From Candidatus Moraniibacteriota bacterium (lineage in GTDB: Bacteria; Patescibacteriota; Minisyncoccia; Moranbacterales; GWC2-37-73): a DNA stretch of 64,000 nt. Below are positions 1-55,117 of this stretch, one piece after another. Positions within the stretch are counted from its first letter, which is position 1. Each line of letters starts with the position of its first letter. Position numbers and translations under genes: made by a program. The notes under the pieces are model-generated. The model made no database searches. It saw only the letters and a program-made list of their open reading frames with translations, and had not been told where the DNA came from. The DNA lies in the NCBI GenBank assembly GCA_035325685.1, contig DAOKZJ010000001.1:160-64159 (forward strand), read 5' to 3'.

Positions 1-803
1 CCATCGCCTATTTTGGCATTCGTTACCGCTCCGTCTTGGATTTTGAGCGTCGCCACGCTGCCGTCGGCCAATTTGATTTGGGTTACCGCGCCGTCGGCGA
101 TTTTTCCTTGCGTGATTGCTCCGTCCACAATATGCGCGGTCATTATCGCCCCATCCGCGATTTTTATAGCCGTAATTGCCCCGTCTTGGATTTTGGCCCC
201 GTTTATTCCCAAGTCGGCTATGTCTTGTGCGGTTATGGTTCCATCGGCAATCTTTGCCCCATTTACCGCTCCATCCGCAATTTCAGCGTTACCCACGGCA
301 CCGTCCGCGATAGCCGCACTGCCGACGCTGTCTGTATCCAATTTTGCTGCCGTAATCGCTCCGTCTTGGATTTTGGCACTCGTTACCGCGCCATCGGCAA
401 GCTTTACGCTTACAACCGCCCCATCCGCGATTTTACCGCTCGTTACCGAGCCCTCCAGGATCTGCACCGGCACCAAAACACCCGGTGCTAACTTGGCTGC
501 GGTGATAGCGCCGTCGCGAATATCGCGCGTGCGTATCTTTCCCTTCAAATCCAGCTTCTTGTAACTTATGTTGGCGCTGCTTGAAATGTCCTTGTCTTTT
601 ATTTTGCGCGAGACGACCTGGAAATATTCCTTGCCATCCTCATAAAGCACTTTTACGATGCGGTTACGTGCTTCGGCCTGGAAGAAAACGACTCCGAAAG
701 ACAAAAAAACCACGGCAAAAAATACCGCGGCCCCTTTTGTTGAAAGTCGCTTCTTCCACACACCACACGTTTCTCCCGCAGCAATCCTTGGCTGCTTGCC
801 CAT
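1..803 (-). CDS. Membrane-anchored tandem-repeat protein, partial (C-terminus lies beyond the window start)
   Basis: My own minus-strand translation from the ATG at 803 gives MGKQPRIAAGETCGVWKKRLSTKGAAVFFAVVFLSFGVVFF..., i.e. an N-terminal TM helix. More than 25 tandem 11-residue repeats of the form K-I-x-D-G-A-[IV]-T-x-x-x follow (e.g. SGKIADGAVVSVKLADGAVTSAKIQDGAITAAKL). The 33-nt periodicity is visible in the DNA from 13 to 560. The plus-strand track ORFs 13..564 and 36..491 are the antisense shadow. Confidence 0.6.
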   Translation of the reverse strand, partial: MGKQPRIAAGETCGVWKKRLSTKGAAVFFAVVFLSFGVVFFQAEARNRIVKVLYEDGKEYFQVVSRKIKDKDISSSANISYKKLDLKGKIRTRDIRDGAITAAKLAPGVLVPVQILEGSVTSGKIADGAVVSVKLADGAVTSAKIQDGAITAAKLDTDSVGSAAIADGAVGNAEIADGAVNGAKIADGTITAQDIADLGINGAKIQDGAITAIKIADGAIMTAHIVDGAITQGKIADGAVTQIKLADGSVATLKIQDGAVTNAKIGD

Positions 804-875
804 ACGTGTATGGATAACTACTGTTTATGACGAAACAGCATAGTCTACACTATCGCTTCGTTTTTGTCAATGACG

Positions 876-1967
876 TCAAACTCCTTCCTGCCCCAGCTCC
901 TTGATGAGCCGCTCCTGTGTGCGGGTAAGTTTTTTGGGTATGTCCACCACCACTTTCACTATTTGATCTCCCCGCCCGGAGCGCCCCAAGTGAGGAATGC
1001 CCCTGCCCTTGATGCGAAACAGTTCTCCGGATTGCGTTCCGGAAGGTATTTTCATAGTCACATCTCCATCCACTGTTTCCACTTTTATTTTATCTCCGAG
1101 CGCGGCCTGGGAAAAACCGACATGCTCCGTCGACAAAATATCATCACGCTCCCGTACGAAGCGCGCATGAGACGCAACGTGCACTGTCACGTAAAGATCG
1201 CCGCTGCGCGCACCTCTTTCGCCTGCTTCGCCCTGTCCGGCAAGGGAAATCGTTTGTCCATCCGCTATTCCGGCGGGTATTTCAATGCGCACATCTTCTT
1301 CGGTCTGAACCCGGCCGTCGCCACCGCACTCGCCGCATTTTTTTTCATAATATTTCCCGCTTCCATGGCATTCTGGACAAATAACCACCTGCTCGATAGT
1401 TCCCAGAAAACTTTGCACGCTTTTGCGCACCTGTCCAACTCCTCCGCAAGTGGGGCATTTCTGTTCTTTACTGCCCTCTTCGCCACCTGTTCCGGAACAT
1501 TTTTTGCAAACCGACCTTCTGCGCAATTTAACCAGACGTTCGGCACCATGCACCATTTCTTCAAACGTTATTTCCACGTCCACTTGGATATTCCGCCCGC
1601 TACGCGATCGTGCGGAAGCGCGACCGCCGAAACCGCCGCCGAAAATATCTTCGAAAATATCCCCAAAGCCGCCGCCGAAATCAAAACCTCCTGCGCCACC
1701 AAAGCCGCCGAAATCAAACCCGCTAAATCCCGCGCTGCCCGCACCGCCCCCGCCCTGCTCGAACGTGCGTCCAAATTGGTCGTATTGGCTTCTTTTGGTT
1801 TTGTCCGAAAGAACCTGGTAAGCTTCGTTTATTTCCTTGAATTTTTCACTGTCGCCTCCGGCTTTGTCCGGGTGGTATTTGTGTGCAAGCTTGCGGAATG
1901 CCTTTTTTATCTCATCGTCGCTGGCTTCCTTGCCTACACCCAATATGTCATAATAATTCTTTGCCAT
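876..1967 (-). CDS. dnaJ: Chaperone DnaJ (Hsp40)
   Basis: J-domain (YYDILGV...KKAFRKLAHKYHPDK), G/F-rich linker and four CxxCxGxG zinc-finger repeats. Start taken at MAKNYYD (ATG at 1967), not the upstream in-frame Met. Confidence 0.95.
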   Translation of the reverse strand: MAKNYYDILGVGKEASDDEIKKAFRKLAHKYHPDKAGGDSEKFKEINEAYQVLSDKTKRSQYDQFGRTFEQGGGGAGSAGFSGFDFGGFGGAGGFDFGGGFGDIFEDIFGGGFGGRASARSRSGRNIQVDVEITFEEMVHGAERLVKLRRRSVCKKCSGTGGEEGSKEQKCPTCGGVGQVRKSVQSFLGTIEQVVICPECHGSGKYYEKKCGECGGDGRVQTEEDVRIEIPAGIADGQTISLAGQGEAGERGARSGDLYVTVHVASHARFVRERDDILSTEHVGFSQAALGDKIKVETVDGDVTMKIPSGTQSGELFRIKGRGIPHLGRSGRGDQIVKVVVDIPKKLTRTQERLIKELGQEGV

Positions 1968-3121: not shown

Positions 3122-3566
3122 GCTTCCATCTTACCATCGATCCGCCGATAAAAAAACGGGGCAGCCTTTTGGCTACCCCCGGGGAACCGTGGATGCTCAC
3201 TGAGAGCAGATGGGATCCGGGCAATCCCCGCCGTGGATCGGACATCCCTCCTCCTTCCCCCTTCCTCCGCAAAGAGGGGTGCCCGGAGAAGTTTTGGGAC
3301 CATCCACCTTGCACCTCCCCATTTCGGGAGTCACGATTCCAACTCCCACGTCCACCGTTACTTTTTTTTCCCCACTCATACGGCTCCTCCCGCCCAATCT
3401 TCTGGCGCTTCTTTTTGGCGCGGTCTTTGCCGCGCTTAGCTGTCCTTTTCTTATCTCTTTTTTCAATATTTGTCAACACTCTTGCCTAATTTGAGATTTT
3501 CCTTATACTGCCTTAGGATGAATATCCGGCTGTTTTTTAAAATAACCTAAGTGCCAGGAGGAAAAG

Positions 3567-4091
3567 ATGGACCAAAAATCGACACCCAAAAAAGAAAATT
3601 TTTCGGAGTTGGTGGAACATTTCCGCGCCATGTACGAGCAGCTTCGCGATCTCCAAAAAGTTGAACAGCAAAAACATCTTCCTTCGGGAGAAACCACTTT
3701 GGAAGCGCTGGCGCTGCTTTGGAGGAAAACGTTCTCTCCCTTACTGCCCGTTTGCAATATCTGCTTCGTGCTCGAAGAAATCCAGCTCCGTCTCCGCAAA
3801 ATGCATCGCTTCATTTTGTCCTTGAATATCTGTTTGCACTCCGGCAAGGAAAATATTCCCACCCTTTCCCAAATAGAAGCTTCTCTTATCTCTCTTGGAG
3901 AAATAAGAACTCTTACGCGCGAAATCATATCCCTAAGCGACAAGGAACGCATCTTCGATCACACCTGGGAAGAAGCCGTGCGACTACGCCGCACACTCAC
4001 AAGGCTGGAGGCTTCACTTGCAAAGAAGCGCTCCGAAATGCTCAGCACAACAAGCCGGCATGAACTGAGTCACGATTGTCCGACCCAATGA
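3567..4091 (+). CDS. Hypothetical protein (174 aa)
   Basis: Strong SD (caGGAGGaaaag-ATG). First gene of a plus-strand run of small ORFs. No recognisable domain. Confidence 0.55.
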   Translation: MDQKSTPKKENFSELVEHFRAMYEQLRDLQKVEQQKHLPSGETTLEALALLWRKTFSPLLPVCNICFVLEEIQLRLRKMHRFILSLNICLHSGKENIPTLSQIEASLISLGEIRTLTREIISLSDKERIFDHTWEEAVRLRRTLTRLEASLAKKRSEMLSTTSRHELSHDCPTQ

Positions 4092-4108
4092 GTAAGGAGG
4101 GATGCAAA

Positions 4109-4450
4109 ATGGAGGTCATCATTTTCACTGCGGTTCTCTTTTGGGGAGCAAAAATCTGCGGCAAGCTTTACCTTTACGCCTCAACCAAAGCGACCAGCAC
4201 CGCTTGCCATCTCGAAAGATGCTCTTGGCTGCTGGGTGCTGCCAATTTTGCCTTGAGCGTTTTTGTTTTGTGCGCCTTGGGCACGCTTTTCCTTTTCGAA
4301 ATAGGCAAAGCCGCGTTCGGTTCATATCAAGAAAAGACGTGGCTTTTCAATTCCGCTTGGATTTGCGTTTCCTTGCTTTTCTCCCGCGGAATGCTTCCCC
4401 CAAAAACATCAATGCCCCCGGAGGAAAGCAATGACCTTGTCGGAACGTGA
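4109..4450 (+). CDS. Small hypothetical membrane protein (~113 aa)
   Basis: SD AAGGAGGG lies 7 nt before the internal ATG (MEVIIFTAVLF...). Two or three predicted TM helices. Confidence 0.5.
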   Translation: MEVIIFTAVLFWGAKICGKLYLYASTKATSTACHLERCSWLLGAANFALSVFVLCALGTLFLFEIGKAAFGSYQEKTWLFNSAWICVSLLFSRGMLPPKTSMPPEESNDLVGT

Positions 4451-4769
4451 CATAAAGGCCTTGGGACACCTGTTTAGCATCAAGGATCAGCGCCATGCGG
4501 AACTTTTGCTCCAAAGGCGCCTCCGCCGGGACGGTTTTCTTTTCGCGCGCATTGCCGTTTCTTACCCAGGCTTGCGCAAAAAGGCGATTCGGCGCATTTG
4601 CGGCCTTAAGGATTGCCGCGCGGATTCCCTGCGCTTCGTCTTGGAGCGTTCTTTGGCTGAAAGAAAGGAACAATGCAAGCTTGCCAAACTCTTGCTGCGC
4701 CTTGACTCGCGCAAAGATACCGCAGAGTTTGTGCGGCGCTGCTTGGTCCAAAACAAAGCCGGATCGTAA
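4431..4769 (+). CDS. Hypothetical protein (112 aa)
   Basis: SD GGAGGaaagca-ATG. Overlaps the upstream gene by 20 nt. A terminator follows. Confidence 0.5.
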   Translation: MTLSERDIKALGHLFSIKDQRHAELLLQRRLRRDGFLFARIAVSYPGLRKKAIRRICGLKDCRADSLRFVLERSLAERKEQCKLAKLLLRLDSRKDTAEFVRRCLVQNKAGS

Positions 4770-4794
4770 TTATCGATCCGGCTTTTCTTTTTTA
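4756..4794 (+). terminator. Rho-independent terminator
   Basis: Hairpin gccggatcg/cgatccggc followed by a T-run (ttttcttttttatt). Confidence 0.7.
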
Positions 4795-5204
4795 TTGCTT
4801 TCTTTTTCGCTCAGACGTCTTTTTTGCCCGATTTTTTTGGGCAAGTGCGGCCAAGATAAGCAAAAAAACAATGAGTCTGGTCTTTCCGACCTTGAGTCCT
4901 TCCGAGCTGAAGCAACCCATCCTTTGTACATCCTTCTCTAATAAAAAATCCGAAACCCTGGGTATTTCTACTACTCTGTATCTGACACCCTTCACGATCC
5001 TCTCCTCGCCTCCGGCTCCCTCTTTTTTCTTCAAAGAATCCCTCATGGCCTCCTCCTTTTTGACCAATCGAAACAGTTGTCAATATACTTTTTTGATTTT
5101 CCATGATAAATCAAAAAAACCTCTCCGTCAACTCTCTTGACTGCTTTTGGTTTTGACGCTTCAATTGTCAAAGAGTCCTTTTATAAAAATCCAAGGAGGT
5201 CCCT

Positions 5205-5621
5205 ATGGAATATGAAAATTTATACAACCGCATTCCCCAGCGCCAGGCGGCCGCAGAAAATGAGGCGTCTATCGTAATTGAGCTGCAAAAAATGCTTCTG
5301 GATCTCTGGGATGTTTTTTTCTTTTCCCAGGAAATACTCGTTCTTCCCCAAATAGCCAGCGGAACCAAAAGACACATCGTCGCTATCCAGGAAAAAATCA
5401 TGACTCACATTATGAACTTCGGTTACGCCTTAAGCTCCGCTCCTTTGCCGCAACTGGAAAAGGAAGAAGACTTGCTTTGTACCAAGATAGACTCGGTCAT
5501 CGATGAATTGAGTTTCTTTCTGGATGAATTGGAGGCTGCCTGGATGCTATTGGAACCGGATAGGCCCCTGCGAAGATTGCCCAGCGGCAAAATACAATTT
5601 CACAAAACCAGCGAGTGTTGA
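5205..5621 (+). CDS. Hypothetical protein (138 aa)
   Basis: SD AAGGAGGtcccT-ATG. No recognisable domain. Confidence 0.5.
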   Translation: MEYENLYNRIPQRQAAAENEASIVIELQKMLLDLWDVFFFSQEILVLPQIASGTKRHIVAIQEKIMTHIMNFGYALSSAPLPQLEKEEDLLCTKIDSVIDELSFFLDELEAAWMLLEPDRPLRRLPSGKIQFHKTSEC

Positions 5622-5630
5622 AAAAAAGGG

Positions 5631-5909
5631 ATGGATATAAGAGAAGCTCTCGCTCAAGTCTTAGATATCCTGTGTACAAAAATTGGGATATATTCTCCGC
5701 TAAAAAAAGCCCTCAACCTGGAATTTATCAATCGCTTATCTGTCCTGATAATGCTTTTGGTGGACGGCCGGTTTTCTTTACGCCTGCTTTTGATTTCCGA
5801 CTGCCTGCGCCGCAACAAGCATGAATGTGAACTCAGCCGCAAAGCGATCCGCTTTTTGCTTCCGACATACCGCTTACCGACATACCGTACGAGCTGGCCA
5901 GACGAGTAA
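5631..5909 (+). CDS. Hypothetical protein (92 aa)
   Basis: ORF 10 nt after the previous stop; only a weak SD (aaaaaaaggg-ATG). Called mainly from its co-orientation and spacing. Confidence 0.35.
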   Translation: MDIREALAQVLDILCTKIGIYSPLKKALNLEFINRLSVLIMLLVDGRFSLRLLLISDCLRRNKHECELSRKAIRFLLPTYRLPTYRTSWPDE

Positions 5910-6061
5910 AGTCCAGGCATGTTTTTAACCGCAAAAAGAAAGCTTTCGTACCTCGCGCGCTTCCCAGCGCCTACGCCCTTCGCCGAATGTTTGACCCTCC
6001 TAAATTATGAATTACTGCCCCCCAGCCATCCGCTGCCGGGGCTTTTTCTTTTTCCCCAACG

Positions 6062-6108
6062 CCCCACCCAAAAGCGAAGCTTTTGGGTAATGGCTCAAAT
6101 AAGGCAAA
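6062..6108. repeat. 47-bp direct repeat, copy 1, containing a GCGAAGC mini-hairpin
   Basis: ccccacccaaaagcgaagcttttgggtaatggctcaaataaggcaaa occurs again at 6765..6811. It carries a perfect hairpin cccaaaagc-GAA-gcttttggg; a third, partial hairpin is at 6112-6140. Confidence 0.85.
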
Positions 6109-6151
6109 TTCCTAAAGCGAAGCTTTTGGAGAAGCTTTAGAGCAAAAAATA

Positions 6152-6190
6152 AAGGCCGGATTATAAATTTAATCCGGCCTTTTCTTTTTT
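6152..6190. terminator. Bidirectional rho-independent terminator
   Basis: aaggccggatt-ataaa-ttaatccggcctt with an A-run before and a T-run after. Could terminate the plus-strand small-ORF run and the minus-strand gene 6621..6247. Confidence 0.75.
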
Positions 6191-6246
6191 TGCATGAGCA
6201 CCTGCTTCAATTAATTTCTGGAAATCATTTTGAAAATAAATCCCCG

Positions 6247-6621
6247 CTAGCTCCTCCTCTCCTCAGTCCGATAATTCTCCCAAAAGACATCCATAAAAGA
6301 AATAGCCTTTAGCAATTTTTCCGTCAAGCAAGAGGCATTTGCCATTACCGCCCCATTTATCCTGAAGCGCCTTTTATTCATGGAAACTCCCTGTCCATAC
6401 TCAGATAGAAAATAATCCTCTCCGTCCGGACCCTTGAAAATGAGGTTTATTTCGGAAGGACGGCCCAGATATTTTTGAGCCAGCCAAATGCGCAAAAAAT
6501 GACAATAAGCTTCGCGCAATGAACGCATGGGATTATTTGCATTCAACTTGAAATGGACTTCCAAAGCGAGCTTGCGATCCGCCAAAATAGCACAGCAATA
6601 ACTTCCGTGGCCGATTCCCAT
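6247..6621 (-). CDS. Hypothetical protein (124 aa), possibly a small nuclease-like protein
   Basis: Strong SD (aagaaGGGGGGAtttATG). Only a faint resemblance to small PD-(D/E)xK/YraN-like proteins (EINLIFKGPDGEDYFLSEYG). The gene lies between the two 47-bp direct repeats. Confidence 0.45.
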   Translation of the reverse strand: MGIGHGSYCCAILADRKLALEVHFKLNANNPMRSLREAYCHFLRIWLAQKYLGRPSEINLIFKGPDGEDYFLSEYGQGVSMNKRRFRINGAVMANASCLTEKLLKAISFMDVFWENYRTEERRS

Positions 6622-6764
6622 AAATCCCCCCTTCTTATAAAGTGAAGTGCTCTTATTTTAAAAAACTTCGTCTTAAATCCAAATATTCCTATCCCATCCT
6701 ACACCCGAAAAAAACATATGCAAAGTATCCCTCCTCCCAAAAAAATCCCCATTAATCCCAAAAA

Positions 6765-6811
6765 CCCCACCCAAAAGCGAAGCTTTTGGGTAATGGCTCA
6801 AATAAGGCAAA
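6765..6811. repeat. 47-bp direct repeat, copy 2
   Basis: Identical to 6062..6108. Confidence 0.85.
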
Positions 6812-6894
6812 AAACTCTTGGGGAAAGGGCAAAAAAGAACCTTTGCGCCATACTCCAAGGGGGTTGTTTTTTAAGTCATCCGGAAACATTCACT

Positions 6895-6925
6895 TAAAGA
6901 GCGGGGTTCAATCCCCGCTCTTTTT
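6895..6925. terminator. Hairpin / terminator at the dnaK 3' end
   Basis: agagcgggg-ttcaat-ccccgctct with a T-run on the plus side and an A-run before. It lies directly after the dnaK stop. Confidence 0.5.
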
Positions 6926-6930
6926 TCAAA

Positions 6931-8832
6931 CTATTTTTTATCGCCGTTTTCTACTTCCGCGTCTTTCACCTCACCTTCGTCTTTTTTCTCTTCGCTGCCT
7001 TCAGCGCCGGCTTGTGTGCCTTCGGCGGCTTGCGTGGCGGCATAAAGCTTCTCGCCGATCTTTTGCGCCGCTTGGGAAAGCACTTCGGTCTTGGCCTTGA
7101 TCTGCTCCAGGTCGTCGCCGTTTTTCACCTTGTTGAGCTCCTCGATCGCCTCCTTAACGGGCTTGGCTTCTTCTTCACTCACTTTGTCGCCCGCCTCCTT
7201 AAGCGCTTTTTCCGTGGTGTACACCAACGTGTCGGCCAAGTTGCGCGCTTCCACCAGTTCCTTTTTGCGCTTGTCCTCTTCGGCATGCATCTCGGCATCT
7301 TTTTTCATCTTTTCGATTTCTTCCTTGGAAAGACCGCTGGAGGCTTCAATCTTGATGGATTGCGACTTGCCGGTCGCCTTATCCTTGGCGGTCACGCTCA
7401 ATATCCCGTTTGCGTCGATATCGAAAGTTACTTCGACTTGAGGAACACCGCGAGGAGCGGGAGGAATCCCGTCAAGAATGAACCGTCCCAATGTCTTGTT
7501 CCCGCTCGCCAATTCGCGCTCGCCTTGCAGGACATGGATCTCCACGCTCGGCTGGTTGTCAGCTGCGGTTGAAAATACCTGCGACTTGGCTGTCGGTACG
7601 GTCGTGTTCCTTTCGATAAGCGGAGTGGAAATTCCGCCCATCGTTTCTATTCCGAGTGTCAACGGAGTTACGTCCAACAGTAACACGTCCTTGACGCTTC
7701 CCTCCAAGACTCCGCCCTGGATTGCGGCCCCCAGGGCCACCACTTCGTCCGGATTCACGCTGATATTGGGTTTTTTGCCAAAAAACTTCTCCACTGTCGA
7801 AAGCACTAACGGCATCCTCGTCATTCCACCGACCATCACCACCTCGTTGATATCGGCAGCGCTCAGTTTGGCATCAGCCAAGGCTTTCTTTACCGGCTCC
7901 AAGGTTTTTTCCACCAAATCTCCTACCAATTCTTCCAGTTTGGCTCGCGTGAGCTTCATAACCAGGTGCCTGGGACCCGAAGCATCGCTCGTGATGAACG
8001 GTTGGTTTATTTCCGTTTCTTGCGCGGTCGAAAGTTCGATTTTGGCTTTTTCCGCAGCTTCCTTGATGCGCTGCAGTGCCAGCGGATCCTTGGAAAGATC
8101 AATTCCTTCTGTTTTTTTGAATTCGTCGATGATCCAAGTGATGATCTTTTGGTCAAAGTCATCCCCACCCAAGTGCGTGTCGCCGTTGGTCGACTTTACC
8201 TCCACTGTGTCTCCACCCACTTCCAAGATGGAAATATCGAACGTGCCGCCTCCCAAGTCATATACGGCTATTTTCTCATCGTTTTTCTTGTCGAATCCAT
8301 AAGCCAAAGCAGCCGCCGTCGGCTCATTGATGATGCGGCGCACGTTCAGGCCGGCGATTTCGCCCGCTTCTTTGGTTGCCTTTCTTTGCGAGTCGTCAAA
8401 ATAAGCCGGCACGGTAATGACCGCATCCGTGATCGTCTCGCCCAATTTCTCCTCCGCATCCGCTTTGAGTTTTTGGAGAATCATCGCGGATATCTCCTGC
8501 GGCGTATAATCTTTGTCGCCCATCTGCACCTTGACCGTTTCGCCGGCATGCACAATTTTGTACGGCATGAGCTTTTCGTCACGCTGTACTTCGCTGTCAT
8601 GATAAGCCCGTCCGATCAAGCGCTTGATGGAAAACAAGGTATTGGTCGGATTGGTCACCGCTTGGCGCTTAGCCAAAAGACCCACCAGCCTCTCGTTAGT
8701 TTTAGAAATAGCTACCATTGAAGGTGTGGTACGCGCCCCTTCTTTGTTCTCGATTATCTCGGGTTTTCCTCCCATCACGACGGCCATCGCCGAATTGGTG
8801 GTGCCCAGGTCGATTCCCAAAATCTTGCCCAT
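6931..8832 (-). CDS. dnaK: Chaperone DnaK (Hsp70)
   Basis: [14 protein letters not shown]..., DLGGGTFD, the [11 protein letters not shown] motif, and a 633-aa length with a C-terminal lid domain. Confidence 0.97.
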
Positions 8833-9044
8833 ATTTTTTGTGAAAAATTCTTAACTTATTAATTATTGCTTTTTTTCCGGGTCATGTGCCCGGCGCGAAA
8901 TTCCCAAAAAAAGAACTTCGCGTCCAACCATGACCATTGACAATTCTCATCTTCCATGCCAGACTTACCGACGGATTGGACAGGTCAACGACCTGCCTTA
9001 GCCCTCGGCATTTTTCCTCCTTTTGCCGGGGGCGCTTTTTTTAT

Positions 9045-9073
9045 TTGACTTTTTTAATTTTATATGATATAAT
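9045..9073 (+). promoter_or_regulatory. Consensus sigma-70 promoter
   Basis: TTGACT, a 17-nt spacer, then TATAAT, about 40 nt upstream of the small ORF at 9117. Confidence 0.6.
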
Positions 9074-9116
9074 AGAAAGAACATCCGTTATTTTACATCA
9101 TCCAAAGGAGGAGATC

Positions 9117-9320
9117 ATGAGTCGCCACATCATCAAGGCCGCCAGTCCGGAAGCGGCCAAAATCCGCCCCATCGACATGTTTACCTTCGCCGCTCCGCTC
9201 ATCCTAAAGCTGGAAAAAAATCCAGCAGACCGAATCTTGAGCGGGGTGTTTGCCGTAAATCCCACTCACGCAACCGAAGAATTCACCCCTTGCGCTTGGT
9301 TTATTGCCAGGCGAAGATAA
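9117..9320 (+). CDS. Small hypothetical protein (67 aa)
   Basis: SD AGGAGGagatc-ATG and a consensus promoter upstream, with a strong terminator downstream. Sequence MSRHIIKAASPEAAKIRPIDMF... Confidence 0.5.
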   Translation: MSRHIIKAASPEAAKIRPIDMFTFAAPLILKLEKNPADRILSGVFAVNPTHATEEFTPCAWFIARRR

Positions 9321-9335
9321 TCTTCTTTTGCTCTG

Positions 9336-9371
9336 CGGGACCGCACATTGCTTGCGGTCCTTTTTTATTTT
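9336..9371 (+). terminator. Rho-independent terminator
   Basis: ggaccgca-cattgct-tgcggtcc followed by ttttttatttt. Confidence 0.75.
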
Positions 9372-9449
9372 CCCTTCAAAAAAACTCGGGACGTGCTTTG
9401 CCCGCTTGGCCGTCCCTTGCAAAAAGAGACGACCTGCCGGAAAAACACC

Positions 9450-9869
9450 TTACTTGGCCTTGATGGCGATTTTCTTGGGCTTCACTTCCTCGGCCTTAGG
9501 CAAAGATATTTTAAGGATTCCCTTTTCATACGTCGCCTCGGCCTGCTCGCCCTTGACCTGCATCGGCAAGATTACCGAACGCGAGAAGCCGCCCATCCGA
9601 ATCTCTTTGCGATAATAATCTTCGCGGCGCACCTCGCTCTTCCCCTCGGCTTTTCCGGAAATAGTAAGTACATCATTTTCAATCGATATATCCACCTTTT
9701 CCGGATCTATGCCGGAAAGCGCCGTTTCCACGATCACGTTGTCCCTGTCCTGATAAACATCAATTGCCGGAATAAAATCCGCGCCGTCCAATCCGGAGAG
9801 TTCGTCAAACATCCGGTCGAAATCCCTCCACATGAATCCTGGCGTATAGCGCATAATTCCCCTGTTCAT
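9450..9869 (-). CDS. Small heat-shock protein, Hsp20/alpha-crystallin family
   Basis: Alpha-crystallin domain (IDVYQDRDNVIVETALSGIDPEKVDISIENDVLTISGK...). SD gaaaGGGGGtgaaaaat-ATG at the internal Met (MNRGIM). Confidence 0.9.
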   Translation of the reverse strand: MNRGIMRYTPGFMWRDFDRMFDELSGLDGADFIPAIDVYQDRDNVIVETALSGIDPEKVDISIENDVLTISGKAEGKSEVRREDYYRKEIRMGGFSRSVILPMQVKGEQAEATYEKGILKISLPKAEEVKPKKIAIKAK

Positions 9870-9926
9870 ATTTTTCACCCCCTTTCTGTTTATTATTTCA
9901 ACTCTTGCTTTCATCCTCGCGATACC

Positions 9927-10517
9927 CTATTCCACCACCACCCGCGCCGGGCGGATGACGCGCTCCCCCATTTTGTAGCCTTTCTGCACGATTTTCTTTA
10001 TGCGATTGAGGTATTTCTTTTCCCCTTGGCAATGGGTGCATTCCTTATCTTCGACTGCTTCATGGAGAGCCGGATCAAAACTATCCCCTTCCTTGGCGGC
10101 TATCTCCTCCAACCCGCCGCTTTCCAGTACCTGTTCCAACTGTTTTTGGATGTGCATGATGCCTACCAACCAACCGCTCTCCTTTTGATCCTCCGGCACA
10201 TGCTCGGTCGCGCTGCGGAAATTGTCCAGCACCGGAATAAGCTCCAAGACCAGATTCTGCGTGGCATATTTGACCAAATCACGCTGCGCGTCTCCCTGAA
10301 GACGACGGTAATTTTCAAACTCCGCCTGACATCTGCGCCATCCGTCCAGATATTCATCCGCCTGTTTCCTGAGGGAAGCAATCGTTTCTTCTTGCTCCAC
10401 CACTATCTGTTCCTCCACATCCTTGATATCTTTTCTCATTTTGCTATCCTCAGCCGCAGATTCCTTCTCGCTTTTTTTATGCTTTTCGGTCATGATTTTT
10501 TGGTTAAGATTTTTCAA
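9927..10517 (-). CDS. grpE: Nucleotide exchange factor GrpE
   Basis: GrpE signature (LRKQADEYLDGWRRCQAEFENYRRL...VLDNF...SFDPALHEAV). The start is either the TTG at 10517 or the ATG at 10493. Confidence 0.9.
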   Translation of the reverse strand: MKNLNQKIMTEKHKKSEKESAAEDSKMRKDIKDVEEQIVVEQEETIASLRKQADEYLDGWRRCQAEFENYRRLQGDAQRDLVKYATQNLVLELIPVLDNFRSATEHVPEDQKESGWLVGIMHIQKQLEQVLESGGLEEIAAKEGDSFDPALHEAVEDKECTHCQGEKKYLNRIKKIVQKGYKMGERVIRPARVVVE

Positions 10518-10532
10518 ATCCGTGTTGCAATT

Positions 10533-11291
10533 TCAAAATCCCAGTACTCTTGCGGATTCAGTGGCAATTATTATTACCGCCGAACCGCTCAGCATCTTCT
10601 TTACGTATTCGATAAGCGATTTGTTCTTGTCGTAGCGCATGCGCTTGGGTCCGATAAGCGCCAAAATGCCTTTTTCCCCTTGTTTGGTGCGATACGGCGA
10701 CACGATCATCGAACAATTGGAGATGTCTGTGATGGGGTTTTCTTTGCCAATAAAGATGCGCGTCTCGCCGTCTTTCAATTCAGCCATGAGCAAATCGAAT
10801 TTCTCATCCACATAATCCAGCACTTCCGCCAAACGGCACACCTCGTCCAGTTCGCGAAATTCCGGCTGCTCCATCAGCTCGCGCATGCCGAACTCGGAAA
10901 ACTCGTCTTTGTCCAAAATGCCGCTGATTGCCAGATTGCCGCTCAGATGCGACATGAGCTTGGCGGTCGTCTTGGTTAGGCGCGTATGCTGCGCTTTGAG
11001 TTTCAAAAATTCCTTTTGCAATTTGAGCTGCTCCTCGCGCGAAAGCTCCTTGTCAGCCATCACTTTCTCCACGAAAAAGCGATACCCTTTGTCGGTCGGA
11101 ATGCGTCCGGCGCTGGTGTGCGGCTGATGCAAAAAACCTTTCTCTTCCAAGGCCGCCATATCGTTGCGGATCGTAGCCGGACTTACCTGGAAATCATATT
11201 TGTCCACCAGCACTTTGGAACCGACCGGCTCGGCGGTCTGCGTGTATTCCTCAATGATGGCCGCCAATATTTTTTCTTGTCTTGTATTCAT
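10533..11291 (-). CDS. hrcA: Heat-inducible transcription repressor HrcA
   Basis: N-terminal winged HTH (QEKILAAIIEEYTQTAEPVGSKVL...SPATIRNDMAALEEKGFL). Positioned upstream of grpE, with a CIRCE element upstream. Confidence 0.9.
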   Translation of the reverse strand: MNTRQEKILAAIIEEYTQTAEPVGSKVLVDKYDFQVSPATIRNDMAALEEKGFLHQPHTSAGRIPTDKGYRFFVEKVMADKELSREEQLKLQKEFLKLKAQHTRLTKTTAKLMSHLSGNLAISGILDKDEFSEFGMRELMEQPEFRELDEVCRLAEVLDYVDEKFDLLMAELKDGETRIFIGKENPITDISNCSMIVSPYRTKQGEKGILALIGPKRMRYDKNKSLIEYVKKMLSGSAVIIIATESARVLGF

Positions 11292-11355
11292 ATAAAACCC
11301 CGCTGTCCCGAATGAATGCACTGATTACGCTGATGAATATATCTTATCTCATAGG

Positions 11356-11382
11356 TTAGCAGTCGTCAAGTCCGAGTGCTAA
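11356..11382. promoter_or_regulatory. CIRCE-like element upstream of hrcA
   Basis: TTAGCAGTC-N9-GAGTGCTAA. A TTGACG -35-like hexamer lies within the spacer and a TAAGAT -10 follows on the minus strand. Confidence 0.75.
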
Positions 11383-11489
11383 TTCGTTATTTACTACTTC
11401 CCTTGCCGGCTTTTTCTTGCATTTCTAAGCACGAAAAAGCCGCCCGGGAGTCCCTGGCGGCTCTAAATTCGCTATTTGAGATTGTGGCC

Positions 11490-11678
11490 CTAATTAAAAC
11501 AGGCCAACTTGCACTCGTGGGTGCAAACCTCTCTCTCCCCTTCACTGGCCAATTCGTAGAAAGCCGTGACCGCATTGAAGCTGGTTATCTCCGCAACGCC
11601 GGTCTTGCTTTCGCTGAGGCGACAATTGACCGGGCGGTCGCCTGCGCATGCAAACGCTGACACGCTTGCTTTTCCCAT
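11490..11678 (-). CDS. Small cysteine-rich hypothetical protein (62 aa)
   Basis: Strong SD (aaaAAGGAGGGatggcaac-ATG). Sequence MGKASVSAFACAGDRPVNCRLSE...EVCTHECKLACFN with 5 Cys. Confidence 0.45.
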   Translation of the reverse strand: MGKASVSAFACAGDRPVNCRLSESKTGVAEITSFNAVTAFYELASEGEREVCTHECKLACFN

Positions 11679-54649: not shown

Positions 54650-55117
54650 GGGGAAAATGAGTATGTTGCCTGCCCAAGCAAACATGTAAGCCGGATTCTG
54701 TCACTTCCGCAAAACAGAAGCGGACAACTATTTATCTAGCTCTGGCGTTTCCGCCAGAATCAAGCGGCACTCCGCCGACGCAAAAGCGTCGCCGGCACGG
54801 CCTTGCACCACGCAGGGTTTGCCATCTTCCGCCGTCGCCGGCGGAGAACTGCCGTAGCCCACATCCTTTGCTAATCAGCTGATGAAGCAAAGTCGTGTAC
54901 CTCGGCAAACTTTTCACCTTTTGCCAGCGCTGCGCACTGGCTAGTATAGTCTCTGTGGCACTTTCCCTTCCACGGCGTCACCGCTGTGGCGGTGGGCGTT
55001 ACCCACTGCGCCTAATCCCGACAAGTCGGAATTGGTGTCCGGACTTTCCTCTCTCCGCCTAAGCGGACAGCAGCTGTCCCGCCTGCTACGACAGGCAACA
55101 CACTCATCTTTTCCCGG
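54650..55117 (-). ncRNA. rnpB: RNase P RNA (bacterial-type)
   Basis: The minus strand has GGCGGAGAGAGGAAAGTCCGGACACC (P4 5' strand) and ACAGAATCCGGCTTAC (P4 3' strand / CR-V). An extended P1 pairs 5' GAGUGUGUUGCCUG with 3' CAGGCAACAUACUC. Length is about 450 nt; the ends are approximate. Confidence 0.8.

Follow-up and report, generated by a model that had tools for sequence, protein, structure and literature searches.

Long indel-free arrays of a 10-residue unit form the shafts of phage tail fibres, as in PHROG families 892, 28766 and 21412, in the Synechococcus T7-like phage S-TIP37 and in gp28 of P-SCSP1u, with an attachment end on one side of the array and a distal tip on the other. Among cellular systems, the mosaic adhesive trimer (MAT) fibres of Bdellovibrio, a bacterium living on other bacteria, join a tail-fibre-like shaft to an N-terminal module that is conserved and a C-terminal tip that is variable or lineage-specific (PMC10769870). 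Other described proteins that come close are YadA-family trimeric autotransporters, Bacteroidota 'beta strand repeat-containing proteins' and pentapeptide-repeat proteins. Here we describe a gene that starts in the first 803 nucleotides of a 64,000-nucleotide stretch of DNA from Candidatus Moraniibacteriota bacterium (contig DAOKZJ010000001.1, positions 160 to 64,159; the whole stretch is hereafter called the window) and codes for arrays of such decapeptides. With a probability of about 0.6, we consider its product to be a Sec-exported modular fibrous surface protein of a Candidatus Moranbacteria-like bacterium of the Candidate Phyla Radiation (CPR, that is, Patescibacteria), probably a trimeric fibre or adhesin. 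This reading is grounded in the structure of the gene, the architecture of its repeats, the export signal, the homology of the repeat with tail-fibre shafts, the chromosomal setting and a conserved partner gene. The protein is a modular fibre on a widespread decapeptide shaft and, as a kind of surface fibre, it is not unprecedented; its CPR-specific tip and the conserved PsbP-like partner are the most interesting lead.

With the phage fibre shafts the Moranbacteria protein shares the 10-residue unit itself (40-48% identity over 170 residues) and the position of the array between an N-terminal part and a distal tip, but it has a signal peptide and housekeeping flanks and lacks a virion-attachment domain. 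The general layout of MAT fibres, cellular rather than viral and made by a bacterium with a life on other bacteria, is likewise recognisable, whereas the NF053851 N-terminal domain is unmatched (full protein, E<=0.01) and appears sub-threshold only in a distant relative, the S74 chaperone is missing, and the beta-helix regions with capping loops known from MAT shafts (PMC10769870) are not seen; the likeness concerns a possible working mode and not membership. As regards the YadA family, at least one relative of our protein, P0066, carries a decapeptide passenger stalk before a coiled-coil neck and a YadA anchor; the Moranbacteria protein, in contrast, has neither the neck nor the anchor (PF03895 unmatched) and ends in a Moranbacteria-specific tip. 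It should be added that the CPR envelope probably offers no outer membrane for the insertion of a YadA-type anchor. The Bacteroidota proteins, which carry PF25296 ('Decapeptide repeat region', cut-off 45 bits) together with DUF5907 (PF19264), are approached through two relatives, P0124 and P0151, where PF25296 falls on a unit of the type K-[IL]-A-D-x-A-V-T-T-A; its scores in relatives are 40.8 and 25.8 bits. On the Moranbacteria protein, however, PF25296 is silent, being unlisted for the fragment encoded in the window (E<=10), for the full protein (E<=1) and for four 70-residue slices (E<=10), and no DUF5907 unit was found there.

Decapeptide arrays and the full-length gene

An initial annotation, made from the sequence of the window, had placed here a minus-strand gene running off the window edge and coding for one N-terminal transmembrane (TM) helix and more than 25 tandem copies of an 11-residue motif that continued past the edge. 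Translation agrees with the gene, which begins with ATG at 803 and stays open past position 1, giving 267 codons within the window. The motif is tandem indeed, at a period of 10 rather than 11 residues: identity at lag 10 is 0.436 vs 0.108 +/- 0.024 in 5,000 shuffles (z = 13.8), whereas at lag 11 it drops to the chance level of 0.08, and D-G dipeptides are spaced by exact multiples of 10. From residue 95 on, the consensus unit reads [IL]-A-D-G-[AS]-[VI]-T-[ST]-A-K. The window part holds 17 complete units (residues 95-264) and three residues of the 18th, in perfect register and without indels, so that the count of more than 25 does not apply to the window and is correct for the whole gene, with its 62 units (18 + 44). 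The parts of the gene within the window are the following:

1..803, minus strand: 5' part of the fibre gene (267 codons), ATG at 803, open at position 1, from translation
669..803, minus strand: signal peptide, residues 1-45, with basic n-region, h-region and predicted cleavage after A-E-A45
759-761, minus strand: GTG at residue 15, alternative start
675-731, minus strand: h-region, residues 25-43, hydropathy maximum
612..668, minus strand: residues 46-64, short conserved module at the N-terminus of the mature protein, predicted to form a beta-hairpin
522..611, minus strand: one copy of a ~20-residue fibre repeat, residues 65-94, type 'DIxxxAxIAYSKLNLxGxI', leading into the decapeptides
3..521, minus strand: residues 95-267, decapeptide array 1, with 17 full units followed by the beginning of unit 18

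The remainder of the gene was obtained through an exact-protein look-up of the neighbouring DnaJ (ATG start), which returned seven contigs, among them L002 (ENA ERZ794915 NODE_111, 107 kb). Over the gene, L002 and the window share 99% identity, with 6 differences in 803 nt, all of them at third codon positions and synonymous. The complete fibre gene occupies L002 11165-15031 and is uninterrupted over 1,288 codons, with modules arranged as follows:

residues 1-45: signal peptide
residues 46-64: short module predicted as a beta-hairpin
residues 65-94: single copy of the ~20-residue fibre repeat
residues 95-274: decapeptide array 1, 18 units
residues 313-416: 26 G-[ND]-x-x tetrapeptides in exact register
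residues ~417-536: linker domain
residues 537-976: decapeptide array 2, 44 units, zero indels
to residue 1288: C-terminal region (tip), 312 residues

Array 1 thus continues past the window edge as had been proposed, and comes to its end only 7 residues further on, at residue 274. The mature protein has two cysteines only, at 1249 and 1277, and the pair is conserved in orthologues.

The hydrophobic segment taken in the initial annotation for a TM helix exists and is single (residues 25-43; Kyte-Doolittle 19-residue mean 2.32), and is most likely a signal peptide that is cleaved, which makes its role as a membrane anchor improbable. In seven orthologues the segment is followed by AEA, TDA, ADA, VDA, VNA, VQA or LNA, a small-x-small motif that directly abuts the conserved mature N-terminus, with Ala at position -1 in 7/7 and A, T, V or L at -3. 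We consider the segment a cleavable Sec signal peptide because this conserved motif satisfies the -3/-1 rule, which is established knowledge for signal peptidase I. A start at the GTG of codon 15 would provide a shorter, more typical n-region and leave the mature protein unchanged.

In the hairpin module, AlphaFold places strands at residues 49-55 and 58-64 (pLDDT about 50-66). When a 51-residue query containing this module was searched against 1.84 billion representatives, full-length matches were confined to P0002, P0308 and P0359; the module is also common to the remaining orthologues. As to the stretch of residues 65-94, 125 representative proteins each contain 3-12 matches to it, and the sequences of P0246 and P0254 display its ~20-residue repeat.

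The notion of a recombination-prone, phase-variable array is not supported. Tandem Repeats Finder (TRF) detected no DNA-level tandem repeat in the window part of the gene; the 17 units of the window have a mean nucleotide identity of 50% (maximum 83%), and no exact direct repeat is longer than 19 nt. Furthermore, six independent assemblies (the window and L002-L006) code for an identical protein across the first 247-320 residues, and the 7 SNPs among them are synonymous in 7/7 cases. Slipped-strand or phase variation is disfavoured because the units have diverged and the proteins of the six assemblies are identical. Between orthologues of different species unit counts do vary: by sequence reading, array 1 of P0127 counts ~4 units, and P0121 and P0122 have far shorter tetrapeptide runs than L002 with its 26 units.

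Five synonymous differences between the window and the five other assemblies lie within 43 nt (window 399-441, gene nt 363-405), with at most 1-2 differences over the rest of the 803 nt; a search for a gene-conversion donor of this cluster returned no better match elsewhere in the fibre gene. No part of the gene is harder to assemble than the tetrapeptide run, the length of which (26 units) comes from one contig. This run follows a finer pattern, G-[ND]-[VLI]-x, and similar runs occur in many unrelated large proteins, some of them flagged Gly-zipper (PF13441). Its interpretation as a string of N-x-T glycosylation sequons was dropped, with only 8 sequons in residues 305-425.

Relatives of the repeat and the fold of the shaft

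Strong matches were obtained with tail-fibre families of PHROG, namely phrog_892 (2e-39, in 4 stretches), phrog_28766 (2.7e-30) and phrog_21412 (1.6e-23), all limited to the repeat array. The 132 phage records that match are annotated mostly as tail fibre or minor tail protein, and include T7-like cyanophages, Thermus phage MN1 and phages of Geobacillus, Lactobacillus and Gordonia. In a large protein database the window fragment has 3,342 relatives, and decapeptide-bearing proteins, counted in thousands, occur in phages, Bacteroidota, CPR bacteria and Bathyarchaeia. A number of relatives combine trimeric-fibre domains with a repeat stalk that is 45-52% identical to the query array: the 290-residue trimeric autotransporter P0066 with its YadA anchor, P0080 and P0106 with the Peptidase_S74 intramolecular chaperone, P0049 with the T7 tail-fibre N-domain, P0219 with a C1q tip, P0104 with a Collar domain, and the prophage tail-spike proteins P0136 and P0138 with Prophage_tail. 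It is because of this domain company that we weight a trimer above a solenoid, by about 3 to 1.

The top matches of the window fragment belong to a large family of 330-460 residues without Pfam annotation (P0001, P0003, P0005, P0006, P0020, P0099), some members of which are named Bathyarchaeota or Bathyarchaeia. These proteins have an N-terminal TM helix that looks uncleaved, a ~20-unit decapeptide array and, at the C-terminus, a conserved domain that is ~110 residues long and has V-I-A-L-P-A at its end.

In the PDB, searches by sequence and by profile pointed only to 9EG4 orf16 (E = 6e-8) and, more weakly, to the trimeric fibre gp28 of cyanophage P-SCSP1u (E = 1e-3). The former, a chain of 269 residues of which the capsid model of Legionella phage LME-1 contains 7 copies, would correspond to the trimeric head decoration protein of this phage (PMC12407071). 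For LME-1, the model leaves out the distal regions of both head decoration proteins and tail fibres (PMC12407071), as distal fibre parts of P-SCSP1u were unresolved (PMC10575957), and the PDB sequence searches returned no deposited chain with more than about four decapeptide units. A literature search found nothing relevant on decapeptide repeats in phages, tail fibres or trimers, nor on surface fibres of Patescibacteria. With the decapeptide shaft being very widespread, the structure of one array would inform many annotations.

The fibre-like or beta-solenoid-like surface structure expected initially is right in kind, as judged from the tail-fibre matches, the fibre relatives and the export signal. 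Several results nevertheless weigh against a trimeric fibre or adhesin. For the window fragment as a monomer (62-sequence alignment), AlphaFold reached a pLDDT of 62.8 and a pTM of 0.29 and drew the array as an extended chain in which each unit makes one helical turn of 3 residues; for the closest full-length orthologue, P0122 (10 sequences), pLDDT was 45.7 and the model, in disagreement with the former, had one 6-7-residue strand per unit. Foldseek comparison of both models with the PDB gave no match below E = 0.1. The repeat-family searches proposed initially, positive with PHROG, yielded no curated Pfam or NCBIfam family over threshold on the fragment, the full protein or slices of the array. 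The large hydrophobic residues at unit positions 1 and 6, thus 5 apart, each with a small residue at -2, and a weak yet genuine similarity to pentapeptide solenoids (designed beta1 proteins, 1.7e-5; HetL, 6.6e-9) would also fit a monomeric solenoid. Beyond codon 320 the gene is known from L002 alone, and L004, L005 and L006, three independent assemblies, all stop at gene nt 962, where the tetrapeptide run starts. Finally, the retention of the fibre on the cell, the binding of a ligand and the contact with the PsbP-like protein are putative. As to the confidence values, single-chain prediction of obligate trimers tends to give a regular, low-confidence extended chain, which does not amount to proof of a trimer here.

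The alternative that fares best takes the arrays for a two-pentapeptide variant of the pentapeptide-repeat (Rfr) fold of HetL, Qnr and PipB2, that is, a monomeric rod on the cell surface in the form of a right-handed quadrilateral beta-helix with 20 residues per coil; we consider it unlikely. In nearly all 62 units, positions 1 and 6 are I, L or V with Ala or Gly at -2, which fits A-x-L-x-x; identity at lag 20 is slightly above that at lag 10; matches extend from the designed solenoids (4yfo, 1.7e-5; 5dra, 3.1e-5) to HetL and PipB2; relatives have sub-threshold Pentapeptide_4 matches on the decapeptide repeat itself; and the low-confidence P0122 model shows strands at period 10, its insignificant best matches being solenoids. 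The family scores, however, stay far under the cut-offs (HetL 35.5 vs 260 bits, PipB2 15.8 vs 354, Pentapeptide_4 ~36 vs 38 in relatives), and the Pfam pentapeptide families PF00805 and PF13599 have no match on fragment, full protein or array slices. The Moranbacteria protein also differs from pentapeptide-repeat proteins in its period of 10, in the invariant D-G of every second pentapeptide and in its export. AlphaFold usually gives high confidence for true pentapeptide-repeat proteins, whereas here no confident solenoid model emerged, even with the 62-sequence alignment, and the decapeptide repeat makes up the stalk in proteins with trimeric-fibre domains.

We find it improbable that the protein is an S-layer or a purely structural coat of the envelope instead of a projecting adhesive fibre. 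The product is exported, large, repetitive and Cys-poor, its gene has a strong promoter-like site of its own, and the top Foldseek match of the low-confidence P0122 model, an insignificant one, is the S-layer protein RsaA; this match (E = 0.24, TM 0.12, model pLDDT 45.7) carries no weight, though, the Pfam and NCBIfam scans returned no S-layer or cell-wall-binding domain, and the named relatives are fibre, adhesin and beta-strand-repeat proteins, none named as lattice-forming.

Orthologues, chromosomal setting and partner gene

The DnaJ of the window has its best genome matches, at <=63% identity, in Candidatus Moranbacteria or Moraniibacteriota and other Parcubacteria, a level that marks an unrepresented CPR lineage. 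Among orthologues of the fibre protein, P0121 (1,080 aa), P0122 (1,048), P0123 (915; Moraniibacteriota), P0127 (777), P0002 and the gene of contig L008 have their modules in the same order; matches of the C-terminal tip were restricted to proteins named Moranbacteria or Moraniibacteriota, or without an organism name.

Upstream of the fibre gene lie hrcA, grpE, hsp20, dnaK and dnaJ, the last being separated from it by a gap of 72 nt. Two features fall in this part:

842..870, minus strand: TTGACA-17 nt-TAGACT, a promoter-like site within the dnaJ-fibre gene gap (10/12 consensus matches in a consensus scan; pattern match alone)
876..1967, minus strand: dnaJ, upstream neighbour, given for context (Pfam DnaJ, DnaJ_C and DnaJ_CXXCXGXG on an identical product)

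Across five loci, the upstream neighbour is dnaJ in three (including L008 and L087) and EPSP synthase or peptidase M3 in the other two. The adjacency with dnaJ has been kept between genomes that share only 62% identity in DnaJ, and genes for chaperone, EPSP synthase, NrdD, RecJ and similar functions flank the five loci, in the neighbourhood of which no phage genes were found. The setting of the fibre gene is therefore chromosomal, and cellular rather than viral.

At all five loci the fibre gene is followed, 2-33 nt downstream and in the same orientation, by a gene whose product is 213-238 residues long and has a TM segment at its N-terminus. In 4/5 loci this partner gene matched Pfam models of the PsbP family (PF18933 or PF01789); the L002 copy (L002 15043-15684), which has counterparts in L008, L087 and L088, matched nothing in Pfam up to E = 1 and is 46% identical to the L008 copy.

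That we are dealing with the tail-fibre gene of a phage or prophage, whole or as a remnant, adjoining dnaJ by chance, is very unlikely. Its strongest family-level matches are, it is true, the tail-fibre PHROGs, and the repeat is carried by the 132 phage genomes mentioned above; against this stand the Sec signal peptide in 7/7 orthologues, the housekeeping flanks, the conserved adjacency with dnaJ and the N-module, linker domain, C-terminal tip and partner gene, which have no PHROG match. Least credible of all is a pseudogene, or an array produced artificially by the assembly, a concern raised with the initial annotation: three assemblies do end at the start of the tetrapeptide run, the L008 orthologue is split by a frameshift in a similar region and L001 has an in-frame TGA, yet six assemblies agree on array 1 and code for an identical protein in the window part, the L002 frame is unbroken, the divergence of the units at the DNA level makes collapse or expansion of the decapeptide array unlikely, and orthologues of 777-1,080 residues are intact.

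In L008 (Parcubacteria bacterium GW2011_GWD2_38_11, 7296-11532) the orthologue that follows dnaJ is found in two frames, 7296-7997 and 8059-11532; the split falls inside the G-N-x-T repeat region and stems from a frameshift or else from an error in the assembly of the repeat. In L001 (JGI 3300013232 contig, orthologue P0002) an in-frame TGA at 1765-1767 is the called stop, and the frame continues to the contig end. This TGA occupies the Gly position of two earlier copies of an A-T-T-A-G-I-A-N-D motif, which suggests a UGA-to-Gly reading (genetic code 25) or else a sequencing error. Genetic code 25 is used in Gracilibacteria and Absconditabacteria.

Proposed mode of action and other features of the window

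Under the reading as a trimeric fibre or adhesin, the protein would be exported by Sec and cleaved after A45, leaving a mature chain of ~1,240 residues that begins with the short hairpin module and continues into the shaft of 62 decapeptides, its two arrays being set apart by the 26 tetrapeptides and the small linker domain. The shaft would most likely assemble, as the relatives suggest, as a homotrimer with one short strand per decapeptide, forming a thin rod of tens of nm that may keep the tip away from the cell. A beta-rung in known beta-helices measures about 4.8 Å, and at one rung per unit the 62 units would extend, by a rough estimate, over ~30 nm. The lineage-specific tip of ~310 residues, presumably stabilised by one disulfide between the paired cysteines, may bind a ligand on another surface, the obvious candidate for a CPR bacterium being the host cell; such binding is suggested because cultivated CPR bacteria are episymbiotic, and by analogy with phage fibres and the Bdellovibrio MAT fibres (PMC10769870). 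The membrane-anchored PsbP-like protein is, from gene linkage, a candidate tether or assembly partner.

Taken further, Moranbacteria and perhaps other CPR bacteria might possess a host-recognition fibre derived from phage-tail-fibre shaft modules, a cleaved and secreted trimeric rod docked by the co-transcribed, membrane-anchored PsbP-like protein and bearing a disulfide tip that selects the host, functionally parallel to Bdellovibrio MAT fibres and evolutionarily separate from them; we offer this tentatively, as something possible and on present grounds rather doubtful. Host recognition and attachment of CPR bacteria are largely unknown beyond type IV pili, and the conserved two-gene cassette represents a concrete, testable candidate in one lineage.

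No second gene of this fibre kind was found within the 64-kb window. Seven small called genes (89-174 residues, on both strands) lie at window ~3500-6900 (= L002 5358-8401), between dnaK and the gene of a 353-residue membrane protein, with Pfam hits in 0/7. A bacterial class A RNase P RNA is located at window 54671-55089 on the minus strand (177 bits, full length).

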